Origin: a virus
Length of the DNA stretch: 64,000 bases
Virus record (IMG/VR): IMGVR_UViG_3300045971_000437
Span: 6,515 to 70,514 of that record
Strand: one strand, 5' to 3'
Shown here: positions 19,815-52,424 of the stretch, piece after piece
How positions within the stretch are numbered: position 1 is the first letter of the stretch
How the letters are laid out: each line of letters starts with the position of its first letter
Program-made: the position numbers and the translations under genes
The notes under the pieces: model-generated
The model's input: only the letters and a program-made list of their open reading frames with translations
Database searches by the model: none
What the model was told of the DNA's origin: nothing

Positions 19815-19844
19815 AAAAAGCCCTCTTAAAGAGGGCTTTTATTT
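19815..19844. terminator. Bidirectional intrinsic terminator
   Basis: aaaagccctc-ttaaa-gagggctttt between convergent genes. Confidence 0.8.
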
Positions 19845-20231
19845 ACCGTGGTCTTTATCTTGCCAGAATAACTTACCCATAGTCGTTTGAAGTTTAGCTG
19901 GTCTGATATCATTACCCAGCTCTCTTGCAAACTTATACATTTCTGTTGCAATACCTTTTCTACGATGCGCTGGTTGAATAGCTAAATCTAAAGCTTCTAA
20001 TTTGCCATCCACCTCTTCAAAGTTAACCCAACCGCAATCAACACCTTTATCTGTTCTAGCAGTGATTCTAAATTGATCGCTCTTTACTTTTTCACCAAGC
20101 TTAAGATATCCAGGTGATGCATAAAGCGTATATGTGCCATCTAAAATTTCTTTAGTCTGTCGAAAACCCTTCTTAAATAACTTAGCATTAACTTTTTCAG
20201 TTAAGAAAGTTTTAAAATTTAGCTTAGACAT
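19839..20231 (-). CDS. GNAT acetyltransferase with capsid-targeting-like leader
   Basis: LAIQPAHRRKGIATEMY acetyl-CoA motif, QTTMGKLFW; N-terminal FKTFLTE. Confidence 0.8.
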   Translation of the reverse strand: MSKLNFKTFLTEKVNAKLFKKGFRQTKEILDGTYTLYASPGYLKLGEKVKSDQFRITARTDKGVDCGWVNFEEVDGKLEALDLAIQPAHRRKGIATEMYKFARELGNDIRPAKLQTTMGKLFWQDKDHGK

Positions 20232-20448
20232 TTTTAAATTTCTTTATTTCTTCAGCTATTTGTTTTTCAATCTGCTTAGTAGTTTTACCAGTATGTACTG
20301 ATAATACTTTAAATAAAGCAGCTTCATACTGTGATGCAGTGGGTCTAGTGTCATCATTACCCGACATGTAATTATTGCCAATAGATTTCTGCAATGACAT
20401 TGCGGCAATTGTAATTAAATCTTGTCCAGCTGCTTCATATAATTTCAT
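20224..20448 (-). CDS. Small putative internal head protein
   Basis: MKLYEA leader. Confidence 0.5.
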   Translation of the reverse strand: MKLYEAAGQDLITIAAMSLQKSIGNNYMSGNDDTRPTASQYEAALFKVLSVHTGKTTKQIEKQIAEEIKKFKNV

Positions 20449-21272
20449 TTTGATTCCTCATTAAGTGCTTCAATCATTTTCTTCCACATACTTTCAGATA
20501 TTAACATACAAGGTCCACCAACCCATACTTCTGAGTCTAAGTTATGATTTAGTGTTTTAGTTGTCTGACATGTGAATCCCAGAACATATGGACTATAAGC
20601 CCTAAATACTTCCTTTAAGAATCCATTATAATATCTTTTAAATGCAATTGCCTCTTCATCTTCGAAACCTCCAAATGCATTTTCGAAATTTTTAATTGCA
20701 TTTATATCGTTATGTTTTAATTTCTTATCAAATTGTTCCCAATCCTTCCAACTAGTAGCTAGCTTTAATTCTGGAATTCTACTAAATGAAGAATTAACTG
20801 CTTCTATTCTATCGCCAAATTCATCGTCAAATAGGCTAATTCTATGACTCCACATATCACCAGCGGCAACGACACCAATTTTAACCCCATCATATGGAAT
20901 TAATACAAATGCATTATCACCATAACCAGATGCATTTTCTATTTCTGTTGTAGCAATAAATGATCTTGATCTCTTAGGATACTGTTTCATATCTGGATGA
21001 TTATCAAATATTAGTGTATAATAATTCTTTGTGTTTTGACTCTTTCTAACTGTCTTTGATGGATCAACTGTTGCAAATCCAGTTTTATGAACAGGTTTTT
21101 CTGCTTCGTCGTCACCGCGATATAACGGCTTATTTTCAGTCAACATCCATAGCGCATCTTTACAACGAGCATTAAGTAATTTTATAGCTTCTTTAACTTG
21201 TATAGAATTATATGAAGGTTTGCGCAAAATGTTATCTGCTGCTTCATTTATAAATGTTTTAAATGTTATCAT
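20445..21272 (-). CDS. ADP-ribosyltransferase-fold head protein, paralog 1
   Basis: FKTFINE leader; LYRG / RSFIATT..ASGYG / SEVWVGG. Confidence 0.6.
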   Translation of the reverse strand: MITFKTFINEAADNILRKPSYNSIQVKEAIKLLNARCKDALWMLTENKPLYRGDDEAEKPVHKTGFATVDPSKTVRKSQNTKNYYTLIFDNHPDMKQYPKRSRSFIATTEIENASGYGDNAFVLIPYDGVKIGVVAAGDMWSHRISLFDDEFGDRIEAVNSSFSRIPELKLATSWKDWEQFDKKLKHNDINAIKNFENAFGGFEDEEAIAFKRYYNGFLKEVFRAYSPYVLGFTCQTTKTLNHNLDSEVWVGGPCMLISESMWKKMIEALNEESK

Positions 21273-22260
21273 TCTGTTTTCTTTTATTGTTTGTCACCAT
21301 CTTTTGCCACATAGCTAAATGTATCAATAGACATTCTCCGCCTATCCATACTTCTGTGACGTTGGTATGTGGTATTTTTTCGAGCAATGTTTTTGTAGTT
21401 GCAGACTTCATGCCCAAATTTAGAGCACCATAAGCTCTTTTTACCTTTTTAAGAAAATCTGTTGATGCACTGCGAGATTGAGGCGCGTGTAGATAATATC
21501 TTACGGCTTGATTAAATTCAGCTAGAGCCGCCTCATCATTATCTTGCAATCGCTTGTCATAATCTATCCATTTTTGCCAATCATGTTCGGATAAAGAATC
21601 GAACATACTCCAAAACATATTAAAACCATCTAAATCAGATTCTATATCAAATAATTCTATATTATTATCCCAAATATCTTCTTTTCCGACTATCCCAATT
21701 TTAACACCATCATATGGAATAATTATAAATGGGGTTGAATCGCGCGAATAACCATCAGCTCTATCATAAGTATTTGCTGCTATAAATGACCTTGATCGTT
21801 TTGGAAATGAATCATTTAAAACATTATCAAGTATTAAGGTATAGTAGTTTTTTGTATTTTGACTTTCGCGTTGTGTAGCTGATGTATTTACCGTTGCGAA
21901 TCCTTTAGGAAGATCAACGAACCTGTCACCACGAAATAAAGGCTCGTTTCTATCTAACATCCACATAGCATCTTTACAGTGAGTATTAAATATTCTTAAA
22001 GCTTCTTCTTCATTTATGTGTAGATATTCTGGCTGCTTATCTATTGCTCTCTCATTTATAAATTCTTTAAATGATTTAGCTTCTTTTAGACCTAGCATCT
22101 TCTTTAGAACACCAGTAGTTAAAGCCCAAAATGATGGATCATCTTCAGACTTATCATATTGATCTTTAACTATCTTTTTAGCGTGAGCCCACTTGTGCTC
22201 TACATCAGCAAGAGTATGACCAGATTTTTTAGCGAAATGCTTTAATGCAGTAGCTGGCAT
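21259..22260 (-). CDS. ADP-ribosyltransferase-fold head protein, paralog 2, with extra N-terminal helical domain
   Basis: Internal FKEFINE; LFRG / RSFIAAN..ADGYS / TEVWIGG. Confidence 0.6.
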   Translation of the reverse strand: MPATALKHFAKKSGHTLADVEHKWAHAKKIVKDQYDKSEDDPSFWALTTGVLKKMLGLKEAKSFKEFINERAIDKQPEYLHINEEEALRIFNTHCKDAMWMLDRNEPLFRGDRFVDLPKGFATVNTSATQRESQNTKNYYTLILDNVLNDSFPKRSRSFIAANTYDRADGYSRDSTPFIIIPYDGVKIGIVGKEDIWDNNIELFDIESDLDGFNMFWSMFDSLSEHDWQKWIDYDKRLQDNDEAALAEFNQAVRYYLHAPQSRSASTDFLKKVKRAYGALNLGMKSATTKTLLEKIPHTNVTEVWIGGECLLIHLAMWQKMVTNNKRKQNDNI

Positions 22261-22263
22261 GTT

Positions 22264-22899
22264 TTAAATTTTTGTAAGTTGTTTCCAGATAACTAATGGC
22301 ATTGATGTAATCATTTTATCTTCATAGTAGAGACAGACTTCTTCATCGTCATCTAGCATTACAGAATAATCACCAGCTCTGCCAAGAAGTTTAGGTTTAA
22401 CTGGCTCAGCTGGTTCTTGTTCATCTTCTTTAACAGATGGTCTTGGGAAATTTGCAAATTGTGGATCTTTGTTGTCATCTTTAATACGTTGAGCTTGCTT
22501 ATATTCTGCATCTTCTATTTGATCATATAATTCATCACGTAGGAATCCTGACAATCTTTGACCGGATAAATTATCTGGATTAGCTATGTCTATCGATTTT
22601 GGATTTGAGCTTCCTGGAAGAAAATAAAATACACGCCACATATCAACTTGGGTTTTTTCATTCTCATTCAACTCATCGTCATACACAGCTTTGATCATAT
22701 CAATAAGCATATCTGTATCTAAAATCTGTTCATCTGGAGCTGCTATTTCTTTTGCCTTATCAGCAATCGCATCCACAGCATCTTCATAAGTCATTCCTTT
22801 AGCATCTACAAGCTTAATAGCTTTATCAATAACATTTTCAAGGTACTCTTTAGAGCGACTTTCTTTCAGTGTCAATAATTCTTTTAATAAGTTACTCAT
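22264..22899 (-). CDS. Putative internal head/core protein
   Basis: LLKELLTLKE leader, acidic. Confidence 0.55.
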   Translation of the reverse strand: MSNLLKELLTLKESRSKEYLENVIDKAIKLVDAKGMTYEDAVDAIADKAKEIAAPDEQILDTDMLIDMIKAVYDDELNENEKTQVDMWRVFYFLPGSSNPKSIDIANPDNLSGQRLSGFLRDELYDQIEDAEYKQAQRIKDDNKDPQFANFPRPSVKEDEQEPAEPVKPKLLGRAGDYSVMLDDDEEVCLYYEDKMITSMPLVIWKQLTKI

Positions 22900-22907
22900 T
22901 TCATTTC

Positions 22908-24485
22908 CTAGTTTAATGGGACTACAGTTGTTTTCTTAAATTTTAATGTGCCTGATAAGGCTACGCTTGCAGCTTTAACTTTAGATGGAAATTCTACAGC
23001 TTTACCATCTTTCTTCCAAAGCTTACCATCTATTTCAATACCAAATTTCATATCAGATTTAGTATCTTCATGACCTAACTCTTGATCTAATTCATTAGCT
23101 TTGAATGAAGCTTTATTCATTAGGGTACTCACAGCGCCCTTAAGGCCAGCCTCATAAAAATTATCCTCTGAAAGAACAACACCTTTATCATCTTCTTGAT
23201 CCCATACACCATAACAACGATCTTCGCCTTTTATTTCTGCAGAGACAGTCATCTTCTTACCTTGCATTTTACTCATGAAGGTAATTCGTTTAGCTTGTTG
23301 CGGATAAGAATTTTTAACTGCTTGTTTCCAATCTTCAATGTCAGTGTATGTAATAGCTTCTTTAAGTTTTTTGTATTTGTAAAGAATATTTTCTGCATCA
23401 GCATTATGTTTCTTAGCCATATTCATATGGCTAATACCAGCTAAATCTTTTGTTGATTCGTATTTATCCATGCACTCTGCTTCTTGAATTTTTAATCCTA
23501 GATATGTTTGACGATCTTTAGGATCAGTAATAATATCTTCAACTTTGTTTTCATTAAAAGCAATTGCTAATTCGCGCTCTTTAATTTGATGTCTTAGCTG
23601 TTTAATTTCTTTAGCTACAGATGGCTTGATATCGATCTTTTTATCGAGCTCGGCTATTTTCTTTTTAAGCCATTCAATTTCATGCGCAGCATTACTTGAA
23701 ACGGCTTCACCTAGCATAGCTTTTAATTTATCAATATCGGCTTGAGTCTCTGCTTTTTCGTCAGTGTGTTCTATCGGTGCAACTTTTGGATCTGATACTT
23801 CAGATTTATTTCTAAAGTGAGATACAGATGCCTTTAAAACTCCATCTTCATTTCTAAAATAGATAGAAGCAAGACCGTGATTAGCTTTAGCATTTTGTGT
23901 TATAACGTACTCACCATCTTTACTCCATTTTATATCTACATTACTAGATTTAAAATTCTTTCTAATCATATCACGTTGTTCTTTTGTAAGAGGCAACATC
24001 TTTGCTTCTTTTTTCTTAGGAGAAAGAATACCTTTAGCAAATGATTTAATTTTATCTGCTACGCCTTCATCTAATGGACCCCAAGCATGCAGGCTTGTGT
24101 CTTCATTTAATTTACGCTTCTTCATTTCAGCTTTCAATGCTGCTCGAAGCGATGTATATTCTGTGTCCCAACCAGCAACACCCTTATTAATATCCGTACT
24201 ATACTTGATTAAATCGTTATCACTGAGTGCTACAATTTTTCTCATTTTGACACCACCATTAGCTAGAGTATCAAACTTATCGTATCTTTTAAAATGTTTA
24301 GAGGCAGACTTTTCATCTTTATTAACGATAGATGCAGTTGCTGCTTTTTCTATTTCTTGTCTAGCTCTATCTTTTGCTGTTTTACCAGCGAACATACGCT
24401 TAACATCTTTAACAAGTCCTTCGTTAACTTCTGTTATTTCTTTAGCGTCTTCTTCTAATTTAACAAATGATGATAGTAATTTCAT
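22908..24485 (-). CDS. Putative internal head protein with many gp21-type cleavage motifs
   Basis: Repeated [LIVF]xE[AGDN] junctions; late promoter at 24532..24525. Confidence 0.55.
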   Translation of the reverse strand: MKLLSSFVKLEEDAKEITEVNEGLVKDVKRMFAGKTAKDRARQEIEKAATASIVNKDEKSASKHFKRYDKFDTLANGGVKMRKIVALSDNDLIKYSTDINKGVAGWDTEYTSLRAALKAEMKKRKLNEDTSLHAWGPLDEGVADKIKSFAKGILSPKKKEAKMLPLTKEQRDMIRKNFKSSNVDIKWSKDGEYVITQNAKANHGLASIYFRNEDGVLKASVSHFRNKSEVSDPKVAPIEHTDEKAETQADIDKLKAMLGEAVSSNAAHEIEWLKKKIAELDKKIDIKPSVAKEIKQLRHQIKERELAIAFNENKVEDIITDPKDRQTYLGLKIQEAECMDKYESTKDLAGISHMNMAKKHNADAENILYKYKKLKEAITYTDIEDWKQAVKNSYPQQAKRITFMSKMQGKKMTVSAEIKGEDRCYGVWDQEDDKGVVLSEDNFYEAGLKGAVSTLMNKASFKANELDQELGHEDTKSDMKFGIEIDGKLWKKDGKAVEFPSKVKAASVALSGTLKFKKTTVVPLN

Positions 24486-24545
24486 GTTATTTTCTCTTAA
24501 TAAGGTGGTTGTAGCAAGCTACTTTATTTATAGGTCAGGCAGATG

Positions 24546-24848
24546 TTATCTTGGATCTACATCATCATGATAAACTTTCGCGATGATCTTACCCAATCCA
24601 GGAAGTTTGTGTCTTGTTAATCGTTCAGTTAACTTTTCTGAAAGATCAGGTTGAAGACCTTTAGATCTTTCATTATCATTGCAGTCAGCAATAACTTTTA
24701 TAATCGATCTACCATCTTTATTAGATAATAATTTAATTTTAAAAACTTTGCATGCTATAAGCTCTTCCTCTGCAATGTGGTGTAAAATATCTTCCCACTT
24801 CTCAACAGCAACTTCTGCTTTAGTTTCAAATAATTCGCTTAATTTCAT
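24546..24848 (-). CDS. Small putative internal head protein
   Basis: MKLSELFE leader. Confidence 0.5.
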   Translation of the reverse strand: MKLSELFETKAEVAVEKWEDILHHIAEEELIACKVFKIKLLSNKDGRSIIKVIADCNDNERSKGLQPDLSEKLTERLTRHKLPGLGKIIAKVYHDDVDPR

Positions 24849-25513
24849 AATGTGTCCAAAAACGGTTTAACTTCATCTAAAAATATTTCGTGCTTCTCAC
24901 TCCAAGAGATATTGAACGCATAATACTTATCGCACTTCCACATAATTTCGTTTGTACTAGAAAGTAATCTTAAAAAATTGGTATTAAATTCCCAGTCAGA
25001 ATTTTCTATATCGTTAATTAATTCAGTGCTAGTCAACTCATATTTTTCTTTTGTGTTGTTTGCTTGTTTTTCATAGGGCAACTTCCTCTGATTATTTAGC
25101 ATGTCATTCCAAATATCTGAATGTAGTTGTGTTAAGTCACTAAACCTATGATCAAGCGTTCCAAACCATTCAAATTTTCCAATAGGAAAAATGGCAGTTA
25201 AATCACCATATGCACCTGCTACTCCGATGTCTCCAGATCCAAATGTCCAATTTCTAAATGGTTCACCATATTTTTGCCAAAAATATCCATTTAGTACATC
25301 ATGGACTTGAGAGGGCATATCTACAGGTCTTTTACGTTCGTGCCATTCCCTAATATCAAAATCTTTAGGAGCATGCTTATCACCGCGATAAAGTAACTTT
25401 TTACCTTTAGTTCCTTTTAGCAGCTCTAAAAATGGAGCACAGTCTTTTTTAAATTTTTCAAGATTGAATGTTGATTCATCTTCTTCATTTATAAACTGTT
25501 TAAATCCTATCAT
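24845..25513 (-). CDS. ADP-ribosyltransferase-fold head protein, paralog 3
   Basis: FKQFINE leader; LYRG / NWTFGSG..AGAYG / NEIMW; start moved to the ATGA overlap. Confidence 0.55.
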   Translation of the reverse strand: MIGFKQFINEEDESTFNLEKFKKDCAPFLELLKGTKGKKLLYRGDKHAPKDFDIREWHERKRPVDMPSQVHDVLNGYFWQKYGEPFRNWTFGSGDIGVAGAYGDLTAIFPIGKFEWFGTLDHRFSDLTQLHSDIWNDMLNNQRKLPYEKQANNTKEKYELTSTELINDIENSDWEFNTNFLRLLSSTNEIMWKCDKYYAFNISWSEKHEIFLDEVKPFLDTL

Positions 25514-26241
25514 GACTTGTACCATCCAGATATTTTCTTAGCTAGTACTTCTCTTGGAATAATTTCCGGTGAAATGTATTTTTGCTTCTTATTTTTCATT
25601 TCTTCAATCATTCGCTTGCCTACTGGATTTTCAAGAGGCTCAGAGAAAAATGATTGAACAGCTTTAAAAGCATTGTTCATACTCTTATCATCGAGGATAC
25701 CACTGTTATCAACTTGTCTGAAGAAATTAACTTTGCCTTTTAAGAAGGTAGCATTTTCTAAATTTTGTTCGTGTACCTGCTTAATAAAGTCTTCATCGAC
25801 ATGTCTGCCGGTTTTCTCAGCACGATCTTTAGCACGCTTAATAGCTACATCTAGAGGAGCATCTACAAATACAACTCCTATATCGTATCCTAATGATTCT
25901 AATATACCCATGCGATGTAGAATATTAGACACATCATTTGATGTTCCATCTACAAACAATGGTAATATTCCATCTAAATAATTAGTAAGAAGTGTTTCAG
26001 TTATCCGGTGGGCCGTATCTTTAAAGTCTGACCATGAATCAGAATTAATTTGTTTCTTCCACTTAGTAGAAAGAAATTCAGCAGCCTTGTCAGTATTAAC
26101 AACTTTCGGTGATACAGCTCCACTGATTTGTTTTACTGTGTAGCTCTTACCTGCGCCAGGTAAACCTACAACAAAAACCGCTTTCAAAATACCTTTATCA
26201 TTAATTGATTCAGATATAAAATTTTTAAATGTTATGTTCAT
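25510..26241 (-). CDS. Zeta-toxin-like P-loop kinase with capsid-targeting-like leader
   Basis: FKNFISE; VVGLPGAGKS, VNTD, FVDGT, GYDIGVVFV, RAEKTGRHV. Confidence 0.7.
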   Translation of the reverse strand: MNITFKNFISESINDKGILKAVFVVGLPGAGKSYTVKQISGAVSPKVVNTDKAAEFLSTKWKKQINSDSWSDFKDTAHRITETLLTNYLDGILPLFVDGTSNDVSNILHRMGILESLGYDIGVVFVDAPLDVAIKRAKDRAEKTGRHVDEDFIKQVHEQNLENATFLKGKVNFFRQVDNSGILDDKSMNNAFKAVQSFFSEPLENPVGKRMIEEMKNKKQKYISPEIIPREVLAKKISGWYKS

Positions 26242-26243
26242 TA

Positions 26244-26900
26244 TTAAACTACCCAAGGGTCTACTATAATCGGAGTTCCATCATTGCGATGCATAAAATT
26301 GCTACCATGTAAATCAAAATTATAATCTCTCTGATTGGCTATTTTGCATAACGATATTATTGTATCTAATAAGAGATTAAATTTTTCTTCACCAAGCAAT
26401 ATTGCTAATTGATTTATTTCGTCAAAGTCTTTAATGTATAAAGCGGACTCATTTTCTAAATCTTTTTGCTTGCTGCCTAACTGCTTGAGCACTAACTTTT
26501 TAATTTTCTGCGGATCGCCATCTTCAATATAACCAGAAATCATACCAAGTGCATTTGATAATTTAGGTGGAAGTTTTTGTAATTTTTCCATTCTTATTTG
26601 CAAATAATCTTTACCATCTTTACCATACGTAAAGTTAGTCCATCCAGAAAATTTAGGAAGAAATGGATTTTTAGAATGATCTTTACAATACTTTGCCCAA
26701 TAAGCAAACATGTCATGCCCTTCATTATGACCAGAATAATGCGAGCCAAATACTTTTAATACCTGTTCAGTTCCTGGTTCTAAAAATGCAGTTTGATCTA
26801 CACCATTACCTAATTTTTTATATCCCTTAGCTTGAAGATATTTAGTAATACTATCTGGGGTGTGGGACCACTCAGTAATAAATTTTTTAAATGATACCAT
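26244..26900 (-). CDS. Ser/Thr protein kinase-like (T7 gp0.7-type) with capsid-targeting-like leader
   Basis: FKKFITE; LGNG Gly-loop, VLKV, DLHGSNFM catalytic loop, IVDP. Confidence 0.75.
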   Translation of the reverse strand: MVSFKKFITEWSHTPDSITKYLQAKGYKKLGNGVDQTAFLEPGTEQVLKVFGSHYSGHNEGHDMFAYWAKYCKDHSKNPFLPKFSGWTNFTYGKDGKDYLQIRMEKLQKLPPKLSNALGMISGYIEDGDPQKIKKLVLKQLGSKQKDLENESALYIKDFDEINQLAILLGEEKFNLLLDTIISLCKIANQRDYNFDLHGSNFMHRNDGTPIIVDPWVV

Positions 26901-26902
26901 TA

Positions 26903-38494: not shown

Positions 38495-39255
38495 TAGTCG
38501 TCCTCATTCCAATCCATCATGCCATTATATAACTTAACAGCACCTTTATAAATTAAACTATCTGTTTTAAACCAAGCTGTTGATTCGACATCCCAGCCAT
38601 CTGTAAACTTATCTGAATCCCTGCTTTGCCAGCCACTATGATGCACACTATCAAAATGTTTAGCCATTGAATCCCATGGAAAATTACCGCGCATCTTCCA
38701 AGTTCCATATTGTGATGCTGCCCACTCAGAATTTTTCTTCGTTAGTTGAGCAGCATCTTCTGCCCATTCATAATATCTATCTAGGTATTCAGAATCATAT
38801 ATAATTGCTGTAGGTTTAATCTCAAACAGAAATCCATAATCAGTCTGCCAATGTGGATATCTTTCTTTAACGAATTGATACCAATCACTTGACCATGTTC
38901 CATCAGGCCTTTTAAATGCACTTGATGTCCAAAATGCATGGTGAGGTTTATTATCGCCTGGTGGAGAGTCATGAAAAGCCGTTAATATTGGTGCCATTTC
39001 TTCTTTTATGGTGTATAAATCATTAACTTCTTTTTTAGCTTGTGCGTATCTCCGCTCACGATCACGTTCAATCTGTACATTTGGATCTCTACGTTTAGGA
39101 ACGAACAATTGAAGTTCTTTATGTACTCTATTATCCGTGAAGGTAGATTGAATACGTCTCAACTCCGCATAGACTTTATCCTCCTCTGGCCACGGAGTTT
39201 CAGGTGGAACCTTTGGTTTTCTAGGAGCTTCTAAAAAGGTTTTAAATCGCATCAT
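38494..39255 (-). CDS. Putative internal head protein of unknown function
   Basis: FKTFLEA leader; HHAFWTSS, FDSVH, WDVES motifs. Confidence 0.55.
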   Translation of the reverse strand: MMRFKTFLEAPRKPKVPPETPWPEEDKVYAELRRIQSTFTDNRVHKELQLFVPKRRDPNVQIERDRERRYAQAKKEVNDLYTIKEEMAPILTAFHDSPPGDNKPHHAFWTSSAFKRPDGTWSSDWYQFVKERYPHWQTDYGFLFEIKPTAIIYDSEYLDRYYEWAEDAAQLTKKNSEWAASQYGTWKMRGNFPWDSMAKHFDSVHHSGWQSRDSDKFTDGWDVESTAWFKTDSLIYKGAVKLYNGMMDWNEDD

Positions 39256-41144: not shown

Positions 41145-42109
41145 TATATCTCTTTCCTTGTTCTATAATGTTTCTCATATAATGTATTATCTATTGATAA
41201 TGCTCTAAATCCACTCACAAACTTTCTGTTTATTAGTGTTTTATACATTCGTGATTGAGATATATTTTGTTCAATGCAGAAATTTTTTAGATTTATAATT
41301 TTAAAAATTTCTGCATTTTCTTTCTCAATCGTCCAAGTTTTAGCCTGCCGTGTCTTTATTATAGTTTTAGACGCCAAATTTTTAACTTGGCCTTCGGACA
41401 TTTTAGCAACAGTTTCAGCAGAGCGTTTTTTGCCTCTATGAAAAGATGCGCATTTCTCAATATGTTCCAGTGACATAGGAGGTCTGTTGTTTGCTGCTTT
41501 AATCTGTTTTTGTAGCATTTTATCCTTAGCTTCACTTGACATATTGTTTAATCCAGCTTTTACCTTATCACTTCTAATTTTAGCATAATCTTTATCTGAA
41601 AATAATTTTGCTAAAGCTGCTTTTTGAACCTTAGACATATTTAACTTCTGTTCATCTGTCCGTTTAACATCTCTAATCTTAGCTACTCTTTTTTCTATAT
41701 GTTCTGACGTTTGACTAGGTCGTTGATAGCCACTAGCTAATAAATCAGCCCACATTTTCTTTAATGATGCTGACATCTTTTCTCTTGTTTCTGCTTTTAG
41801 CGCTTTACCTGGTTGATTTCCTGTTCCTCCAGATCTAATGTTCATGCACATTTTATTTAATCGAAGTTCTGGAGTAATTATCTGTTCCTCACGTAATGAT
41901 AATGATTTTCTATCTTGTAAGAGCTCGATTACTTCACACGTATGATTTTCTCTGCCATATTTTTTAATAGACCTAGATAATATTGACCCACTCCCCAAAT
42001 ATCCATCATTTAAGTTATCAGTTGAGTGCATACCTAAATAAAATTTCCCAGTAATAGTACAAGTAGTTTTATAGATTATATGATATTTTCTATATTCAGC
42101 TCTGTTCAT
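41144..42109 (-). mobile_element. Free-standing GIY-YIG (Seg-like) homing endonuclease with NUMOD3-like repeats
   Basis: IIYKTTCTITGKFYLGMHS..DGYLGSG, MNIRSGG, HSxExKxK-type repeats; start moved to MNRAE (GGAG RBS). Confidence 0.85.
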
Positions 42110-42163
42110 AATGATCTCCATTTTATTTGACTATCTATTTATTGATGTCTGCTAAAATGTGTT

Positions 42164-44970: not shown

Positions 44971-45021
44971 TTGTCTGATGATTATTAAAATAAATATTGA
45001 TATTACTATTTAAGGATTTTT

Positions 45022-45271: not shown

Positions 45272-45276
45272 AAGAA

Positions 45277-45540
45277 CTAATTAAGATATTCCAAAAGAAC
45301 ATCTATTTTACCTTCTAGTTCAACCTTTTTAACAGATAAGCTAGCGATAGCAGCCTGAACTTTATCGTGCCCATGTGTTGATGCATATTTCTTAAAATCA
45401 ACTATTTGTAAATGCGTAATAGTTGCTGATACCAATTTGTGTTCCGCTATCAGCGAGTCACAATATTCTTTAGTGAATATGTCCATGTGCAATTCCTTTT
45501 TCTTATCTGATGTTTTAAATATACGTGAAAATAGTTTCAT
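45277..45540 (-). CDS. Hypothetical protein
   Basis: ORF track; start moved downstream of the late motif at 45552..45545. Confidence 0.5.
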   Translation of the reverse strand: MKLFSRIFKTSDKKKELHMDIFTKEYCDSLIAEHKLVSATITHLQIVDFKKYASTHGHDKVQAAIASLSVKKVELEGKIDVLLEYLN

Positions 45541-45575
45541 AGTATATTTATCCAAACATAATCAGAGAAAAGAAT

Positions 45576-45815
45576 CTATTCTGTATATCCTCTGCTTTTT
45601 GCTCTCATGCCACTTAAAATGATTTGAGATTTTGGATCAGTTACATATTTGGATAATACTGGATCTTTTTCAGGATTATCTCTAAACACGTAACCTGGAC
45701 GTTTAGCACCAATGTTCTTAATAACTTTTTTCGTATTGGCATCTAATAGATAAAAGTCATCATCATTGAATGCTTCCGCTATAACAGCAAATGAATGTAA
45801 TTCAAATAATTTCAT
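45576..45815 (-). CDS. Small putative internal head protein
   Basis: MKLFEL...IAEA leader. Confidence 0.5.
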   Translation of the reverse strand: MKLFELHSFAVIAEAFNDDDFYLLDANTKKVIKNIGAKRPGYVFRDNPEKDPVLSKYVTDPKSQIILSGMRAKSRGYTE

Positions 45816-45827
45816 TTTGTTTCCTCT

Positions 45828-46112
45828 TTACATTTCCTGATCAGCAGGAATAAAATATGTTTGTTTTTCTTCTTTGTTAGGTGGATCGACCCTAGCAAAT
45901 ATCTTATCTGCAACTTTAAACAAGCTGATAATCCAAGGACCAACAGCCGTATCAATTAATTTATGCTGCGTTTCTTTAGCTCGCTGTAATAGTTTATCAT
46001 CGACATCATCAACAACTCTAATGTCTAAAGTTCCTAATAAATCCCTAGCTATTAATGCTGCTTGTTGTCTAATAGCCATTTCTGTTAGAAACTCTTTGAA
46101 TGTTATTTTCAT
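45828..46112 (-). CDS. Small putative internal head protein
   Basis: MKITFKEFLTE leader. Confidence 0.55.
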   Translation of the reverse strand: MKITFKEFLTEMAIRQQAALIARDLLGTLDIRVVDDVDDKLLQRAKETQHKLIDTAVGPWIISLFKVADKIFARVDPPNKEEKQTYFIPADQEM

Positions 46113-47293
46113 AATCTATGTTCGCGATGCTCTAATATTGAATTAATGGCATCACATACAGCAATATAACTTCTCTTATTATATGCATTCAAACCAGTCT
46201 GATTAACATTATGTCGTCCTTCTCTGGAATCTTTAATAGCTACTTCCATCTTGTAAACGATGTCATTTACATTTGTTGGGTCTGCATAATATCTTGATGA
46301 GACCCAATCGATTTCTTTCGATACAACAACTGGTACACCAACTGAAACTGCATCTGCAGATACAATATTGAATGTTTCGCTGAAACTTACTTGCAACGAT
46401 ATATCCATCTTATCCATGAGCTGAATAAATTCTACGTGTGGCATCCATTCATGTTCAATTAAAGTTGCATGCTGAGAATTTTTAAACACGGCTCTAATAT
46501 TCTTAATTGAAGGATTTCCACCATCGCCCTCAACTCGACCAGAGTTAATGTGGAAGTAAACATGAATATCATTTTTCTTAGCATAGCGAACTGCTGCTGT
46601 CGCTTGGACTAATTGATTTTTAAGAAGTCTAATAGCACCGAAGCATCCCACATTGATCTCTTTCTTTGGATCTCTGTGATTATGTTCAATGATTTTTGCA
46701 CAATGAATTCCTAAAAAGTGAAGAACATTTCCAAAGAAGCTATGTTCTACCTGTCTGTGCGGTAGTTCTCCAACAAAATTTTCTGCAATATAATAGTTAG
46801 GGAAATACAAGATTTTCTGTTCTACTTTTCTATCTTGCCTATCAGTGTAATTTTCGAGAACGATATCAGTCAAATCCTCTAATGATGATCTGGTGTTAGT
46901 TGCTATGTAAACATTTTTAATGGCTACATATCGGCTAAGCCAGTCTAAAGCGTTACCTTCGCCAGCTAAAAACGGCATGTTACTATGTCCACGAATTAAC
47001 CACTTAACTTTTGGATGAAGTTTGGTAAGTATTTCAAATTTCTCCGGTACAACCCAAACAGCTTCAATTACAACTAGATCAGGCTTAAATGAATTTACTT
47101 CTCTATCAATATCATTATTATCCTTAACTTGAATCAATTTTGATTCACAATGCTTTCCATCTAATCCATGTATCTCAAGCATCTCAGTTATCATGCTTGC
47201 AGAATTATATAGACCGGACGATAGGCCACCTCCGTGACTATATGGACCATTATTGTTATCACGATATTTTAATATAAAAAGTATTTTTTTCAT
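46109..47293 (-). CDS. GT-B fold (GT4-like) glycosyltransferase
   Basis: NVGCFGAIRLLKNQ, QVSFSETFNIVSADAVSVGVPVV (ExFxxxxxE/D motif); start moved to MKKILF, below the late promoter. Confidence 0.8.
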   Translation of the reverse strand: MKKILFILKYRDNNNGPYSHGGGLSSGLYNSASMITEMLEIHGLDGKHCESKLIQVKDNNDIDREVNSFKPDLVVIEAVWVVPEKFEILTKLHPKVKWLIRGHSNMPFLAGEGNALDWLSRYVAIKNVYIATNTRSSLEDLTDIVLENYTDRQDRKVEQKILYFPNYYIAENFVGELPHRQVEHSFFGNVLHFLGIHCAKIIEHNHRDPKKEINVGCFGAIRLLKNQLVQATAAVRYAKKNDIHVYFHINSGRVEGDGGNPSIKNIRAVFKNSQHATLIEHEWMPHVEFIQLMDKMDISLQVSFSETFNIVSADAVSVGVPVVVSKEIDWVSSRYYADPTNVNDIVYKMEVAIKDSREGRHNVNQTGLNAYNKRSYIAVCDAINSILEHREHRL

Positions 47294-47414
47294 TTTACTG
47301 CTCTTCGGGTTGATGATAGTGGATGTGTGTAACGTTTTTATTATAAATCTATTTATACATCTATCTCCGGAGCAAAAATAAACCTGCAAAAAGAGCAGGC
47401 TTATCAGTGTTTAT

Positions 47415-48080
47415 TTAGGCAGCTTTAATTCCGATTACATGGTATTCTAAACCCAAAGCTTTAGCTAATTTCTTCGCTTTAGATACATGCTTTGCAGTCA
47501 CAGCTCCTTCTAAAGCACCCTTAAACATTTCTAAATCTGAACCATCTTTTGATCCAAATTTATTGCCACGTTTAAAGAATGCTCCAGCAAAAATATCGTC
47601 AATTGCATCTGCAAAATTTTCTTTAGTAGCCTTTAATTTGCCTTCTTTAGCATTTCCAAGTGCATCATATTCAGTTGGAGTTCCATCTGGCTGGGTATGA
47701 TAGTTTGAAGACTTAGAATCAAATCTATCCCAACCACTATTAGCTTCTTTTATATCTGAAGATGAGATTGCAATTTGCCATGGAGTGTCGTGATCTTTCC
47801 CAGTAAAAAGATCTCGTTGAACAACCTTTACTTTCCAACCACCAAAACCAGCTTTTGATAATCTGTTTGCAATTACTTTCGCGGCAGTTTCACTCTGAAG
47901 CGGGGTTGATTCTTGAGTCACCCATTCAACTTCTCTCTTATTTGGAAAAACATCCCAAGATTTAAAACGACTGGCATCTGGAAGAAACTTCTCAGATCCT
48001 CTAACTACTGCTTCAATTGCTTTAGTTTCAGCCTTGATGTCAACAGCTTCATTTATTTGAATTAATTCTTTTAATAACAT
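47415..48080 (-). CDS. Putative internal head protein
   Basis: MLLKELIQINEA leader (start moved to 48080). Confidence 0.55.
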   Translation of the reverse strand: MLLKELIQINEAVDIKAETKAIEAVVRGSEKFLPDASRFKSWDVFPNKREVEWVTQESTPLQSETAAKVIANRLSKAGFGGWKVKVVQRDLFTGKDHDTPWQIAISSSDIKEANSGWDRFDSKSSNYHTQPDGTPTEYDALGNAKEGKLKATKENFADAIDDIFAGAFFKRGNKFGSKDGSDLEMFKGALEGAVTAKHVSKAKKLAKALGLEYHVIGIKAA

Positions 48081-48081
48081 T

Positions 48082-48414
48082 TTAGTCTTCCTTATCCGTG
48101 AAGATTGATTGATCCACATTTACTCCAAAACCACCGGTTAAATCATAGACATTAATATTTTCTACTTTGCTTCCGTGTACATCACAGCTAAATTCTACTG
48201 TTCCTTTTCCATGCTTAGAAGGATTGTCAAGGTTTTCCCAATTGAAAAATCCTTTGTAGTGATTTTGTTCTCTATTATAATTGTCAAGAGATATAAAATC
48301 AAAATCAATTTCTGGAACCAAGTCATTCATATAGCCAGACATTTTATCCATTATAACTTGATGTTGTTTTTCATCAGTAGACTCTTTCAAAGCTAATAAT
48401 TCTTTTAGTAACAT
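48082..48414 (-). CDS. Putative internal head protein
   Basis: MLLKELLALKES leader. Confidence 0.55.
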   Translation of the reverse strand: MLLKELLALKESTDEKQHQVIMDKMSGYMNDLVPEIDFDFISLDNYNREQNHYKGFFNWENLDNPSKHGKGTVEFSCDVHGSKVENINVYDLTGGFGVNVDQSIFTDKED

Positions 48415-48472
48415 TTTAATTTCCTAACCAGGGATTAATTGATAGATCTATTTATACATCCAACTCCGGAGC

Positions 48473-48503
48473 CAAAATAAACCTGCCGAAGCAGGTTTAT
48501 TTT
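48473..48503 (-). terminator. Terminator after the major capsid gene
   Basis: aaaataaacctgc-cgaa-gcaggtttatttt (UUCG loop on the minus strand). Confidence 0.85.
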
Positions 48504-48516
48504 GGAGCTTTTTCGA

Positions 48517-49755
48517 TTAAACGAAAGAAAGATTTGCTACACTTATGCGACCATAATAGTCAGCTGAATTGCCAAGAGATGTTGCGCTAGAGGTAAATGT
48601 TGCTTTACCGTAACGAGTCATCAATGAAACGTGAGGGTTGAACGTATTAGGATCAACAACAACACCAGAAGACATCAATGGTACGTATGGGCAGTAGAAG
48701 TAACCTGAATCCATTTCACCAGAACCACCTTTGTAACCAATCAAGATTGGCTCAGTACCTGCATCGTGGTAGATGTATGTGTAAACTTTGATAGAACCGT
48801 TTAAAGTACCAACAAGTTTAGTGTTGTTTGGACCATCGAAGGAACCAGCAACAGCAGGAGCAAATACTGATTTAGATGCTGACTGCAATACTGATACAAC
48901 TAATGGAGAAACTACGATCCAGTTAGCTGGGCCACGGCGTGTTTTACGTGCGATTTCGTTAGAAATCTTGTTGATAAGAACACCAAGAACTGCATGACGA
49001 TCACCAACATAGTTAGGAACACCAGTGAAGGTACCTGCCATGTCGAAAGAATCAGTAGTACCTGCAAGTGCGATCAAATCATTGATGATTTCATTGTCGA
49101 TTTCAGAAACGATTGCTGAAGATAATGAAGAAGTGATTTCAGCTTCAAGGTCAAGACCATGAGATGCTTTCAAATCTTGCATTGCTTCTGGAGTCCAACG
49201 AGCTTGTAGCTTACGTGAACCAGCAGTAACAGTTTGTTTCAATACTTCAAGTGTTAATGAACGACCACCGAATGCTTCATAGTCAGATGTTGATGCAGCC
49301 ACACCTGTTGAAGTACCTGCAGCTGGACCACCGGAAGGAGCTGGTGCATCAGATGTAGAATAGAAACGTTTAGTCTTCGAATTGTTACCGAAGATTTCAT
49401 CGCCTGTATTGATGTCATCTGCTAAGCCGCCATTTAAAGTACCTGGAAGTGCAGTTGTAACAACGTTATCAGCGAATAAGAAACGCATAGAATACACAAG
49501 ACCTACTGGACCAGACATTGGCTGAACACCTACCAATTCTGTTGCAATAGTTCCAGGGATAATACGTCGAATCATTGGGATTACGATTTTCTGGAAGTTG
49601 CCGATAGCACCTGCAGCATTAGTACCTGCTCCAGCTGTTTCTTTCAAGTGTTGCATTTGGTTTTCTAGTACTGGACCGAGAATACGCTTCTTGTTTTCAG
49701 GCAAACCCTCAAGAAGTGTATCTTTGGTTTCTTGCCAATTTTCAAATAGTTCCAT
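48517..49755 (-). CDS. 23: Major capsid protein (gp23-like)
   Basis: LVGVQPMSGPVG, RKLQARWT.E..QDL...HGLD.E, EIDNEII, YCPYVPL, F.P.V..MTRYG. Confidence 0.95.
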   Translation of the reverse strand: MELFENWQETKDTLLEGLPENKKRILGPVLENQMQHLKETAGAGTNAAGAIGNFQKIVIPMIRRIIPGTIATELVGVQPMSGPVGLVYSMRFLFADNVVTTALPGTLNGGLADDINTGDEIFGNNSKTKRFYSTSDAPAPSGGPAAGTSTGVAASTSDYEAFGGRSLTLEVLKQTVTAGSRKLQARWTPEAMQDLKASHGLDLEAEITSSLSSAIVSEIDNEIINDLIALAGTTDSFDMAGTFTGVPNYVGDRHAVLGVLINKISNEIARKTRRGPANWIVVSPLVVSVLQSASKSVFAPAVAGSFDGPNNTKLVGTLNGSIKVYTYIYHDAGTEPILIGYKGGSGEMDSGYFYCPYVPLMSSGVVVDPNTFNPHVSLMTRYGKATFTSSATSLGNSADYYGRISVANLSFV

Positions 49756-49774
49756 TGAATATCTCCTTGTGGAA

Positions 49775-50656
49775 TTAGTTAGTCATACCAGCAAGTTTTC
49801 TCAAATGAGCAAACTTATCTGATACAGGTGAAGGTTGAACCAATGTTGGTGCATCCCCTGTTAAAACAACCGACTCAGTTAACTGGGCTGGCTTTTCTAC
49901 TGCGATAGCAGCTGGTGCTGAAGCATCTTCTTTCAAAATACGATCGATGAACTGAGCATATGCTTCTTCAAGACGTGCAGTTTTAACTGATTGAAGAACG
50001 AACAACATCTGTTCTTTCTTTTTGCCAGTCAATGGTGCAAGCATTTTTTCTAGTTTAGCTTCACGAACTAAAGTAGCTTGAGATTCCTCTAAAGTACCGA
50101 TAGTCTGTTCTGCATCTTCTAGTTTAGCAATTGCTACAGCCAATTTAGCCTGTACTGAATCTTCATCAGTATGGGACTTATTAAATTCTGTTGCATATGC
50201 TTCGAATATTTTGCGGCCAAACTCATTTTGTTTGACAATTTCTAGGTCTTCGCGAAGTTCTTCGAACTCTTCATTAAGACGTAGCTCAAAGAAAGCGTCC
50301 ATCTTATCGACAAGTTTGTCTAGTTCTTCTGAAAGCGTTGCTGCGATTGAGTGTTTTTCTTCAACGATCTTTTCTGCATATTCTGCTTCGAGGTCGCGGA
50401 AACGTTCAATATCATTTTTAAGTTCTTGAATTTCTTCATCGAGCTTTTTAGATACAAACGATTCAACATTTTCAATCAAAGAATCACGTTCGCTGGTCCA
50501 CTGTTCGGCAATTTCAGCTCGTACTGTCATAGACACTTCTTCGCGAACAATAGTTTTATATTGTTCAACAGAAGCTGTCCACTCGGTAGAAATTGAAGCT
50601 TTTGCTTCTTCACTTAGTAGATCAGAGTTTAGCAATTTCTGAAGGATTTCATCCAT
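49775..50656 (-). CDS. 22: Prohead core scaffold protein (gp22-like)
   Basis: Acidic coiled-coil, FGRKIFEAY, directly upstream of the MCP gene. Confidence 0.85.
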   Translation of the reverse strand: MDEILQKLLNSDLLSEEAKASISTEWTASVEQYKTIVREEVSMTVRAEIAEQWTSERDSLIENVESFVSKKLDEEIQELKNDIERFRDLEAEYAEKIVEEKHSIAATLSEELDKLVDKMDAFFELRLNEEFEELREDLEIVKQNEFGRKIFEAYATEFNKSHTDEDSVQAKLAVAIAKLEDAEQTIGTLEESQATLVREAKLEKMLAPLTGKKKEQMLFVLQSVKTARLEEAYAQFIDRILKEDASAPAAIAVEKPAQLTESVVLTGDAPTLVQPSPVSDKFAHLRKLAGMTN

Positions 50657-50684
50657 GCGTTTCTCCTTTGTTTTAATTGGGAAA

Positions 50685-50716
50685 TTAGAGACTTGAAATA
50701 GCCGCCTCTAACGGCT
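50685..50716 (-). ncRNA. Cis-regulatory RNA motif, copy A (pseudoknot/alternative hairpin)
   Basis: AGCCG-UUAGAG-G-CGGCU-AUUUCAA-GU-CUCUAA; ends 28 nt before the gp22 ATG. Confidence 0.6.
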
Positions 50717-50813
50717 TGAATTTTAACGCATTTGACAAAATAAACTGTACAAACTCGCATTAACCGTACGAATTTATTTATAAGGAAGCGCAAAAATTCA
50801 TTAAAAACTTTAC

Positions 50814-50984
50814 TTATTCGTCATCAGAAGTAATTTCATCATCAGCGGGCGCCTCTTGTGGAGCCAGACCTGCAACATCTTTCATTTTAGCTGAAAGATA
50901 TCCATGCAAATCCATAGATGCTTCTTCCGGTTTATCATTAATAAGATTATTTAGCATATTCTTAAGAGCTTCTCGTTTATCCAT
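50814..50984 (-). CDS. Small acidic prohead core protein, 56 aa (not in ORF track)
   Basis: MDKREALKNMLNNLINDKPEEASMDLHGYLSAKMKDVAGLAPQEAPADDEITSDDE; GAAGGAG RBS; position similar to T4 gp67/68. Confidence 0.75.
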   Translation of the reverse strand: MDKREALKNMLNNLINDKPEEASMDLHGYLSAKMKDVAGLAPQEAPADDEITSDDE

Positions 50985-51012
50985 TATATGTATCTCCTTC
51001 GATTTAAAAAAT

Positions 51013-51040
51013 TTGAGAGACTACCGGCCTCTCAACGGTA
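51013..51040 (-). ncRNA. Cis-regulatory RNA motif, copy B
   Basis: UACCG-UUGAGAG-GC-CGGUA-GU-CUCUCAA; ends 28 nt before the ATG at 50984, just after the late motif GTAAATA. Confidence 0.6.
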
Positions 51041-51050
51041 TATTTACTTA

Positions 51051-51383
51051 TTATTCTTCCTGCTCTTCTGATTCTATTGATGCTTTACCATCTTCAAAAC
51101 CTGCTTCATAAACTTTATTGATAAGATCGGCCAATTCATCACCAGTCTTTCCTTCAACTTTAGCAGCAATTTTTGTTACTATAGATGGAAGTTCTTCCTC
51201 TTCGCCTTCTACTTTTTCTTCATCTGGAGTTTCAGATTCTTCATCATCTTCTTTAACTAATTCTGGAAGACCAGCTAGTTTTCTAAATAAATCCATATCT
51301 TCATTTAATTTAACTGAAGTCTTTTTTACTTTAGCTTTTGTTTCTGATAGTCCAGCTAATTGTCGCAAACGTTGATTATCCAT
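51051..51383 (-). CDS. Acidic prohead core protein
   Basis: Two RQLAGL-type motifs; EGKTGDEL domain shared with the neighbouring gene. Confidence 0.65.
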   Translation of the reverse strand: MDNQRLRQLAGLSETKAKVKKTSVKLNEDMDLFRKLAGLPELVKEDDEESETPDEEKVEGEEEELPSIVTKIAAKVEGKTGDELADLINKVYEAGFEDGKASIESEEQEE

Positions 51384-51838
51384 TATGCTTCTTCCTCTTC
51401 ATTAGGTTGTTCTTCCATAGATGCAGCACCATCTTTAACCGCTTCATCATAAAGATGTTGTATAATTGCAACTAGCTCATCGCCGGTTTTACCTTCTGCA
51501 TCTGCAGCAGCCTTCATAACTGCTTCTGGGAATGCAGGTTTTTCTTCCTCAGCATTATCAGTTGGATCTTCATCCTTCTCATCTACAATTTCTGGTTCCG
51601 GTGTTGCAGGAATTTCTGTTGCTGGTCCAGATGGAGTAACGACTGGCTGGTCTGGCGTCATTGCTGGTGGTCCGCCTGCAGTCGTAGAAGGAATTGCTGG
51701 AAGACCAGCAATTCGTCTAAATTCATCACCCATTGAAACAGTCACTGGACCTGTAGCATGACCAGCTAATGGAGTTAATGCATAATTTTCTCTAACTGTT
51801 GGTAGACCAGCAAGTTGGCGTATTCTATTTTTATTCAT
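51383..51838 (-). CDS. Acidic prohead core protein (paralog of 51051..51383)
   Basis: Two RQLAGL-type motifs; EGKTGDEL domain. Confidence 0.65.
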   Translation of the reverse strand: MNKNRIRQLAGLPTVRENYALTPLAGHATGPVTVSMGDEFRRIAGLPAIPSTTAGGPPAMTPDQPVVTPSGPATEIPATPEPEIVDEKDEDPTDNAEEEKPAFPEAVMKAAADAEGKTGDELVAIIQHLYDEAVKDGAASMEEQPNEEEEA

Positions 51839-51842
51839 AATA

Positions 51843-52424
51843 TTATGATGCCTCTACTAAGTGATCGTACAATGCTTCTAGTGCTTCAATAGCTTCGTCA
51901 AGTTTTTCTTTGACACCCTTAGACATTTCATTTGCTTCTGTACTATAATTAGAATCTGTAACTTTCATGTATTCTATCCATGCATGAGAATCTAATTTAG
52001 CTTGTGCTTGACCTAATAATTTTTCTAATTTATTGAATTCGCTTTCAAATTCAGAAGAGTCCCAAAGATCATCTGAATGACCAAAAGATTCATTTATTGA
52101 TTCTTCTACAGTAATTTCTTCATCTAATGAATATGTAGCAACTTTAACTGATTCAACTATCTTATAGGAGATCATTACCTTCTTAGGAACGAATTTAGAG
52201 AATTGACTCTTCATATCCCATTGATCATTGTTAATTTTAGCATTTGATTCTGCTTTTTTGAAAGCATTATACTTAATTGCTTTGTTTATATCTTGAACTA
52301 AGTCTTGATCATCTGCTGCAAAATAACCCTTAATAGCACCATTGCGATTAACAAGAGCAACAACGTATGTTTCATCTGGAGTTTTACCTTCAGTAAGTGG
52401 TAAAAGTTCTTTTAAAAGATTCAT
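51843..52424 (-). CDS. Putative internal head/core protein
   Basis: MNLLKELLPLTEG leader; multiple [ILV]xES sites. Confidence 0.55.
   Translation of the reverse strand: MNLLKELLPLTEGKTPDETYVVALVNRNGAIKGYFAADDQDLVQDINKAIKYNAFKKAESNAKINNDQWDMKSQFSKFVPKKVMISYKIVESVKVATYSLDEEITVEESINESFGHSDDLWDSSEFESEFNKLEKLLGQAQAKLDSHAWIEYMKVTDSNYSTEANEMSKGVKEKLDEAIEALEALYDHLVEAS

Follow-up and report, generated by a model that had tools for sequence, protein, structure and literature searches.

An enzyme-rich set of proteins in an uncultured jumbo phage probably carries T4-type capsid-targeting leaders

Why do about 20 genes on a single phage contig begin with variants of the same few short peptides? The question is raised by a 64,000-nt stretch (the window; positions 6,515 to 70,514) of the IMG/VR record IMGVR_UViG_3300045971_000437, a linear virus record of 71,293 nt with an estimated completeness of 22%, which was analysed as a whole and of which the window forms most. 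Nearly all window genes lie on the minus strand, as do all the window features described here. A reading of the sequence alone had listed 20 open reading frames (ORFs) between positions 19839 and 52424 with N-terminal peptides of three kinds, here called the F, L and K classes, and had proposed that these are capsid-targeting leaders removed by the prohead protease. All 20 ORFs are present with the N-termini listed, as a check of ORFs and translations confirms, and the leaders are very probably of the proposed type: the phage encodes its own gp21 homologue, the leaders terminate in (L/I)xE, they match the key positions of the capsid-targeting sequence (CTS) of phage T4, and they are both portable between unrelated proteins and conserved in relatives. 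The fuller reading, in which the leaders act as T4-type prohead-core targeting propeptides with gp21-type removal and the cargo is injected with the DNA, we consider likely.

A motif scan run in six frames over the entire contig returned 13 copies of the F pattern, F[KL]xF[LI]x(0-2)E, and four of the L pattern, LLKEL[LI]x[LI]xE, with no copy of either outside real genes. Twelve of the 13 F copies fall within the first 10 residues of their proteins, and the other lies at residue 64 of 21259–22260. Residue shuffles of the 75 window ORFs gave a chance expectation of 0.15 F matches (maximum 3), and of 0.01 within the first 20 residues against the 12 observed; the L pattern did not occur in 2000 shuffles. 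The K class, MKLxE (three genes), is only weakly above chance within the window; its support comes from one member whose orthologue has the same start and from the cultured relative RsoM2USA (MG752970.1), in which about 35 genes start with MKLxE whereas the reversed-sequence control gave none. Among the window genes that belong to neither the F nor the L class, the generic [LI]xE motif in the first 16 residues is at background level (11 of 58 against approximately 17%).

After correction of start codons, 12 of the 13 F leaders and all four L leaders end within residues 9–13, the exception being the copy that follows a 60-residue extension. The corrected starts are those of 25510–26256, from the ATG at 26241 (MNITFKNFISE, the form on record and in agreement with 117 orthologues), and of 47415–48119, from M14 at coordinate 48080 (MLLKELIQINE, as in a relative); 24845–25525 probably starts at M5, coordinate 25513. 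The two Phe, the Leu/Ile and the Glu are spaced i, i+3, i+4 and i+6 in 11 of the 13 F leaders, with the Glu one residue later in 31513 (FKTFLLQE) and one residue earlier in 38494 (FKTFLE). The gp21 cleavage motif L/I-x-E closes 12 of the 13 F leaders, all four L leaders and all three K leaders; 38494 has F-L-E instead. Two further N-termini were considered: MKLLSSFVKLEE on 22908–24485, not counted because a close relative has LVNLEQ and the Glu site is not kept, and MKIAHPLESVFGLEE on 27868–28323, a possible leader.

The leaders are carried by proteins that are otherwise unrelated. In an all-against-all BLASTP comparison with the leaders stripped off, seven F genes form one superfamily (20445, 21259 and 26903; 24845, 31513, 32372 and 33271), the other six (19839, 25510, 26244, 36917, 38494 and 45828) are unrelated to one another, and the leader is all that the four L proteins have in common; at least seven unrelated F families and four unrelated L proteins therefore bear portable leaders. 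This comparison bears on the notion that the motif is an inherited similarity of duplicated genes with no function of its own. Such an origin would suit the seven paralogues among the 13 F genes, as well as the MKLxEI set of RsoM2USA, which is largely one family of at least 24 members, but it leaves six F genes and all four L genes without explanation. Even among the seven paralogues, conservation of the leader far exceeds that of the remaining protein, with overall identities of 17–33% and yet invariant F3 and F6, and duplication as the whole story is hardly credible.

The sequence-only reading had placed the F class mostly on enzyme-like proteins and the L class on proteins without a recognizable domain, and this distribution holds (11 of 13 and none of four, respectively). 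The largest group is the seven paralogues, which resemble ADP-ribosyltransferases (ARTs). Group 2 includes 20445–21272 (leader MITFKTFINE, in the T4 CTS register; phrog_12810, 9e-32, with R..S..E-like alignment columns) and 26903–27868 (MQTFKQFLSE; phrog_12810, 2.8e-22); group 1 includes 24845–25525 (MIGFKQFINEE, from the likely start at 25513; phrog_11975, 2e-17). A tandem trio consists of 33271–34101 (MRFKTFLKEE), which lies directly behind a late promoter, followed by 32372–33274 (MRFLEFLNEE; phrog_11975, 4e-23) and 31513–32382 (MKFKTFLLQE; phrog_11975, 1.6e-22). The seventh paralogue, 21259–22260, carries its motif behind a 60-residue N-terminal extension, as LGLKE followed by FKEFINE (residues 64–70). 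This extension is genuine, being conserved in a close JGI relative (loci L049 and L051), and it is homologous to the free-standing 75-residue ORF381 of the RsoM2USA head module (33% identity, 5e-12), whose own C-terminus reads ...LGLRESEQITFKDFIIAE. The shared 60-residue module, MPA..L..AKK....VE..W..AK followed by LGL(K/R)E and an F-type motif, spans 22051–22260 in the window and L001:18734–18961 in RsoM2USA; a head-module gene of its own in RsoM2USA, it is fused ahead of an ART-like gene in the window phage.

The seven paralogues share conserved LYRG, R..S and NEI/EVW columns, and we treat their identity as R-S-E type ADP-ribosyltransferases as a lead. An AlphaFold2 (AF2) model of the 33271 protein (pLDDT 61; residues 1–10 below 50) compared against VIA gave Z scores of 3–4.2 to Arr, cholix toxin, exotoxin A, DarT and poly(ADP-ribose) polymerases (PARPs). 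No match was found in Pfam or among PDB sequences, a profile of the seven run against PDB sequences gave chance hits only, and Foldseek with the model returned nothing at E below 0.4; with structural scores this low and neither a sequence nor a Foldseek match, the assignment stays at that level.

The remaining F genes are more varied. A GNAT acetyltransferase (19839–20231, leader MSKLNFKTFLTE) matches Pfam Acetyltransf_1 at 22.4 bits, above the cut-off, and its orthologue in the JGI relative (L049) starts MTTFKTFITE. The product of 25510–26241 (MNITFKNFISE) is a P-loop kinase of zeta-toxin/AAA_33/polynucleotide-kinase-like type (Pfam Zeta_toxin, 3.6e-14), closest to bacterial polynucleotide kinase and adenylate kinase folds, with the Pnkp kinase as the best Foldseek match (5e-7). 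Next to it, 26244–26900 (MVSFKKFITE) encodes a T7 gp0.7-like protein kinase (phrog_15752, 1.4e-7) whose L049 orthologue starts MKTFKQFILE. An amidoligase-domain protein (36917–38494, MRFKDFLIE; Pfam Amidoligase_2, 30.4 bits) adjoins 38494–39255 (MMRFKTFLE, with the Glu right after the Leu), a protein without annotated function or family, and the 94-residue product of 45828–46112 (MKITFKEFLTE; L051 orthologue, MSTTFKSFLTE) is likewise without family assignment; neither of the latter two matched Pfam, PHROGs or the ESM Atlas. Within 20445–27868, the ART-like proteins match positions 9–254 of the 788-position phrog_12810 profile and the P-loop kinase matches positions 260–467, which suggests that some family members elsewhere may be ART-like/kinase fusions. 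In the window phage the two parts appear as separate genes, each with its own leader, as an address acting per polypeptide would require. The mature cargo is neither depleted nor enriched in [LI]xE (33 sites observed, 28.8 expected).

The machinery that such leaders would need is encoded on the same contig. Judged from its sequence, the contig represents about 22% of a jumbo phage genome that belongs to the T4 superfamily and, within it, to the RsoM2USA/XacN1 group: its gp23-type major capsid protein (48517–49755; phrog_138, 1.4e-93) shares approximately 61% identity with its counterparts in three jumbo myophages, Ralstonia RsoM2USA and Xanthomonas XacN1 and Xoo-sp13. Around the capsid gene lies a T4-type head module with portal (53129–54709), protease, three small core-like proteins and scaffold. 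The gp21-type prohead protease (52427–53041; phrog_207, 1.5e-57), the presumed leader-removing enzyme, is 35% identical to T4 gp21 and retains the blocks GELNHP and GVSSRG; at its N-terminus, QLLIE is the equivalent of LIE-9, a site noted for T4 gp21 (PMC9026906), and its counterpart in a relative matches Peptidase_S77. The capsid propeptide has an (L/I)xE↓TA site near residue 41 that is conserved across the clade in alignment. The 293-residue scaffold (49775–50656; N-terminus MDEILQKLLNSDLLSEE; 46% identical to RsoM2USA ORF382) contains 14 [LI]xE sites, against 7.6 expected from its own composition in shuffles (p = 0.007). The three acidic prohead-core-like proteins (151, 110 and 56 residues; 50814–51838), with a repeated R-x-L-A-G-L, are conserved in L051 and correspond in position to T4 gp67/gp68.

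Two observations on these core-like genes stand by themselves. Across 49775–51838, the proteins of 151 and 110 residues each contain two copies of R-x-L-A-G-(L/M), and a further copy, RKLAGM, stands at the scaffold C-terminus; the motif is kept in the JGI relative (L051) and in RsoM2USA ORF380 (LKHLAGV) and may serve as a docking site common to the core proteins. The 56-residue ORF (50814–50984) occupies what seems a 394-nt gap upstream of the scaffold gene and is shorter than usual ORF length cut-offs; it combines an acidic tail with an N-terminal helix, like T4 gp67, and is conserved in L051 (10466–10636).

The tagged genes also share the transcriptional setting of the head genes. Spacers between genes are few, yet seven of the eight minus-strand copies of the late-promoter box TATAAATA are found in them, each immediately upstream of a gene; they include those at 53099–53106, 50775–50782, 48449–48456, 34132–34139 and 24525–24532, which precede the protease gene, the scaffold gene, the L-class gene 48082–48414, the ART-like trio and the 22908 operon, respectively. 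ATAAATA variants stand ahead of the tube, sheath and neck genes, and tagged genes follow without gaps. Tail tube, sheath and gp15-like genes are interspersed among the tagged genes, which occupy 13.5 kb of the 32.6-kb stretch, and this arrangement suggests late operons in which tagged genes would be expressed alongside tail and head genes.

The CTS found on IPII and IPIII, internal proteins of T4, reportedly goes back to Mullaney and Black in 1996. This sequence and its removal by gp21, which cuts after L/I-X-E (PMC9026906), are reviewed in PMC9026906 and PMC3012670. The sequence-only reading had given the IPII/IPIII leader as MKTYQEFIAE, and the ipII and ipIII starts in the T4 record (NC_000866), where gp23 is cut at ...FLTE↓AEIGG, agree. 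In the T4 CTS, residues 4 and 7 are the main determinants of targeting and residues 8 and 10 those of processing, and the 10 N-terminal residues of IPIII are enough for packaging (PMC9026906). T4 residues Y4, F7, I8 and E10 are the four conserved positions of the F class (aromatic, F, L/I and E) at the same spacing, and MITFKTFINE, MQTFKQFLSE and MVSFKKFITE are in identical register with the T4 sequence. By its residue pattern, M-x-x-F-K-x-F-L/I-x-E against MKTYQEFIAE, the F class is the direct counterpart of the T4 internal-protein CTS. The two systems also share a leader of about 10 residues at the N-terminus of unrelated proteins, and a gp21 homologue, scaffold and gp23-type capsid protein in the same genome; the tagged genes here are probably late genes, as in T4. 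They differ in the extent of the tagged set, since 71 kb, or about 22% of the genome, holds 13 F-tagged genes here whereas T4 has three internal proteins, in the nature of the cargo, which here is mostly enzyme-like, of 25–60 kDa and not basic, and in lineage, the jumbo phage being distant from T4 (capsid approximately 31% identical to gp23 over the N-terminal region).

The sufficiency of the first 10 residues in T4 also bears on the idea that the leaders are removable propeptides that merely keep toxic enzymes inactive until head maturation, while entry into the head depends on regions outside the leader. Much of the cargo looks toxin-like and all the leaders end in a cleavage motif, as this idea would predict. 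A leader of 9–12 residues that lies outside the fold is, however, unlikely to mask an active site, and in the AF2 models of both the kinase 25510 (pLDDT 87; residues 1–10, mean 49, forming a short helix before the P-loop strand) and the ART-like protein 33271 the leader is outside the folded domain. The same leader occurs on small proteins without an enzyme domain. Set against the T4 result (PMC9026906), inactivation as the purpose of the leaders seems unlikely.

Conservation in relatives extends the case for a targeting function. The close JGI relative is syntenic over both clusters and keeps every leader. For the kinase 25510, 374 homologues were found in a large protein collection, and among the best 120 (55–77% identity, on contigs of up to 373 kb) 117 keep the leader, at residues 3–5; F5 and E11 are invariant in a 50-sequence alignment. 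Metagenome homologues of the ART-like proteins keep MRFK[ST]FL.E at 28–53% identity, and those at 28–32% have MRFKTFL.E. In word-based searches for homologues, 33271 gave three hits and 51843 one, not counting the protein from the window itself, and such small sets do not allow a profile to be built. Across the whole RsoM2USA genome there are 11 clear N-terminal F-type leaders, against none in the control, and their genes include a three-gene ART-like tandem beside the gp15 homologue and the kinase orthologue (MTTFKEYLLE). XacN1 has a single F-type leader gene, ORF117, located in the terminal repeat. The strict F pattern is at background (0–2 copies, against 0–1 in controls) in Xoo-sp13, Vibrio phage 2.275.O, Phosso, GAP32 and CBB, which indicates that the exact leader is not a general feature of the wider group of more distant jumbo phages. 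A link to virions comes from RsoM2USA ORF89, a tagged 253-residue protein that starts MKTFKQFLSE and has a computed mass of 28.56 kDa; a 28.57 kDa ORF89 is among the ten virion gel bands assigned by LC-MS/MS (PMC8504454).

That the shared N-terminus might instead serve a non-capsid process, as the tag for a modifying enzyme, a degron or a translation-initiation signal, gains something from the first two leader codons, which are slightly more uniform than codon usage predicts (TTT in 12 of 13, AAA in 12 of 12). The codons of the second Phe, the Leu/Ile and the Glu vary synonymously, from which it follows that selection acts on the peptide, and the conservation over 117 orthologues likewise points to the protein level. 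No radical-SAM gene was found on the contig, itself about 22% of the genome, and a tag of this kind would explain neither why the leaders terminate in (L/I)xE nor why they agree with T4 CTS positions 4, 7, 8 and 10. It is very unlikely.

Several points weigh against reading the leaders as prohead-targeting propeptides. The FKTFLE leader of 38494 has no spacer residue in its L/I-x-E site. The mature cargo proteins are mostly acidic or neutral and of 8–59 kDa, whereas the T4 internal proteins are small and basic. In T4 itself, a relaxed F pattern finds ipII, ipIII, one internal false positive in uvsW, and gene 61.1 (NC_000866, 18966–19130, minus strand), whose 54-residue, uncharacterized product from the primase region starts with the near-perfect CTS-like MKTFKEFIKE and has no virion annotation in the record; the motif alone is thus no proof of packaging. 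The ORF89 assignment is worded as 'most likely' in PMC8504454, with nothing on cleavage. Two enzymes reported in XacN1 virions (chitinase, ORF272, and lipase, ORF279) carry no such leader, and hence other routes into the virion exist. The window phage is known solely from pond metagenomes: one contains nearly all of its record, and another contains 73% of the sampled words.

The L and K leaders call for a separate comparison. Of the four L-class genes, three lie beside the gene for the protease or the capsid protein. Immediately downstream of the protease gene, 51843–52424 encodes a 193-residue protein (leader MNLLKELLPLTE) with seven [LI]xE sites, against 3.0 in shuffles (p = 0.017); in the one orthologue that was found (46% identity), LLKELLPLTEGK is unchanged and the 90 residues after it have diverged, and the protein is a candidate for a prohead-core component. 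A 110-residue protein with its own late promoter (48082–48414, MLLKELLALKE; L051 orthologue, MLLKELLSLLE) is encoded just downstream of the capsid gene, and 47415–48080 (MLLKELIQINE, from the true start at M14 of the longest ORF) has a same-position gene in L051 that starts MLLKELFE. The fourth, an acidic protein (22264–22899, leader MSNLLKELLTLKE; L049 orthologue, MTMLKELLALKE), sits among the cargo genes. The K-class proteins are small: 74 residues with MKLYE (20224–20448, no orthologue found), 100 residues with MKLSELFE and two nested LxE sites (24546–24848, with an L049 orthologue of the same start) and 79 residues with MKLFE (45576–45815). No L- or K-class protein matched Pfam, PHROGs or the ESM Atlas. 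The two sets of leaders form one series, M-x-L-x-E often followed by a second LxE (MLLKE-LLALKE, MKLSE-LFE).

In T4 the N-termini of gp22 (MLKEQLIAE), gp24 (MAKINELLRE), gp67 (MEGLIE) and gp68 (MLLIPE) offer the nearest comparison (NC_000866), and the L and K classes appear to correspond to the aliphatic N-termini of gp22, gp67 and gp68, proteins of the core, and of Alt, an ADP-ribosyltransferase that is packaged, injected and trimmed by gp21 at ITE-6 and LTE-619 (PMC5694885). The L leader MLLKELLxLxE resembles both gp22 and the N-terminus of the window phage's own scaffold, the L-class genes adjoin those for protease, scaffold and capsid protein, and the 51843 product is, like a scaffold, enriched in cleavage motifs; beyond the first residues there is, in contrast, no sequence homology to the T4 core proteins. 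With Alt the shared features are a head-carried enzyme of ART type and a short propeptide ending in (L/I)xE, matched in length by the K-class leaders; the differences are that here there are seven small ART-like paralogues of about 30 kDa, with no detectable sequence similarity to Alt and an ART fold at Z 3–4. These resemblances suggest that the L class probably comprises core or scaffold-associated proteins and that the F class is probably the cargo tag of internal-protein type; the L-class proteins may then be prohead-core components instead of a second class of cargo. A set of K-type starts stands out in RsoM2USA, where loci L011–L013 (approximately 172–214 kb) hold at least 24 paralogues of about 200 residues and about 11 further genes that start MKLxE(I), none of them with a PHROG match; these may form a very large tagged multigene family in a cultured phage.

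The sequence-only reading had also raised the possibility of two sorting codes, and as stated this is not supported. In such a scheme, with two or three codes, the F, L and K leaders would address different prohead receptors, places or times, with cargo matched to code. The classes are indeed discrete in sequence, each is conserved in orthologues, and the placement of F mostly on enzymes and of L on domain-less proteins, largely beside head genes, would fit. Orthologous cargo nevertheless swaps leader class between phages: the amidoligase has an F leader in the window phage (36917) and MKLIQKLSE in RsoM2USA, and RsoM2USA ORF405, one of three tandem ART-like genes, has MKLEDLFE next to neighbours with F leaders. 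These switches show that cargo type does not fix leader class. The L and K leaders form a continuum, and the equally varied N-termini of T4 belong to proteins that all join a single core; separate sorting codes are therefore doubtful. Unlikely as well is a combinatorial address, in which F and L/K leaders would bind different core partners and so control the copy number of a protein, where in the head it sits or when it is ejected relative to the others; were it true, the staged delivery of more than 20 pre-made effectors would be predictable from sequence alone.

For the favoured reading, T4-type core targeting with gp21-type removal, the course of events that we infer is as follows. The tagged proteins would be made late, from T4-like late promoters, and their short amphipathic N-terminal helix would bind the scaffold or core on which the gp23-type shell assembles. 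The gp21-type protease would then cut after the Glu of the terminal (L/I)-x-E, and the mature proteins would remain inside the head and exit with the DNA at infection. The cargo so delivered could constitute a host-takeover kit of seven ART-like paralogues, two kinases, a GNAT, an amidoligase and several unannotated proteins. The phiKZ-like giant phages (phiKZ, 201phi2-1 and SPN3US) resemble this phage in having many head-internal proteins cut after Glu by a gp21-related protease and a large injected protein load, but their propeptides are mostly longer than 100 residues with the motif S/A/G-x-E, in contrast to the 5–13 residues and L/I-x-E found here.

Three further loci in the tagged region deserve mention. 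The glycosyltransferase-like gene 46109–47389 has a doubtful TTG start at 47389: a TATAAATA box lies inside the ORF, at 47350–47357, and the RsoM2USA orthologue aligns from residue 17 onward only. Between the tail tube gene and the tagged cluster, 28327–29249 holds two tandem paralogues that are kept in RsoM2USA, XacN1 and the JGI relatives; a Pfam scan of one (28327–28797) revealed a TnsA-like endonuclease N-terminal domain, which is also present in both JGI-relative counterparts. A 325-residue gene (41144–42121) lies between two neck/structural genes, and its sole RsoM2USA match maps to an unrelated part of that genome (85.7 kb), which would suit a mobile insert of homing-endonuclease-like type.

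The mechanism proposed here, a T4-type CTS with gp21 processing, is textbook T4 biology; the gain is in scope and cargo, not in principle, since it appears in a distant, uncultured jumbo-phage lineage and with an unusually large and enzyme-rich tagged set. Our literature search found no paper that describes leaders of CTS type for RsoM2USA, XacN1 or their group. Positions 4, 7, 8 and 10 of the T4 CTS would thus form a rule that extends to this distant lineage and provides a simple search key for cargo genes, and the tag could, the analysis suggests, serve as a means of filling other large capsids with foreign proteins. Should the tags act as they do in T4, the set of proteins injected by an entire lineage of uncultured freshwater jumbo phages would be readable from the genome, and these phages would deliver a pre-made kit of enzymes able to act before any phage gene is expressed.

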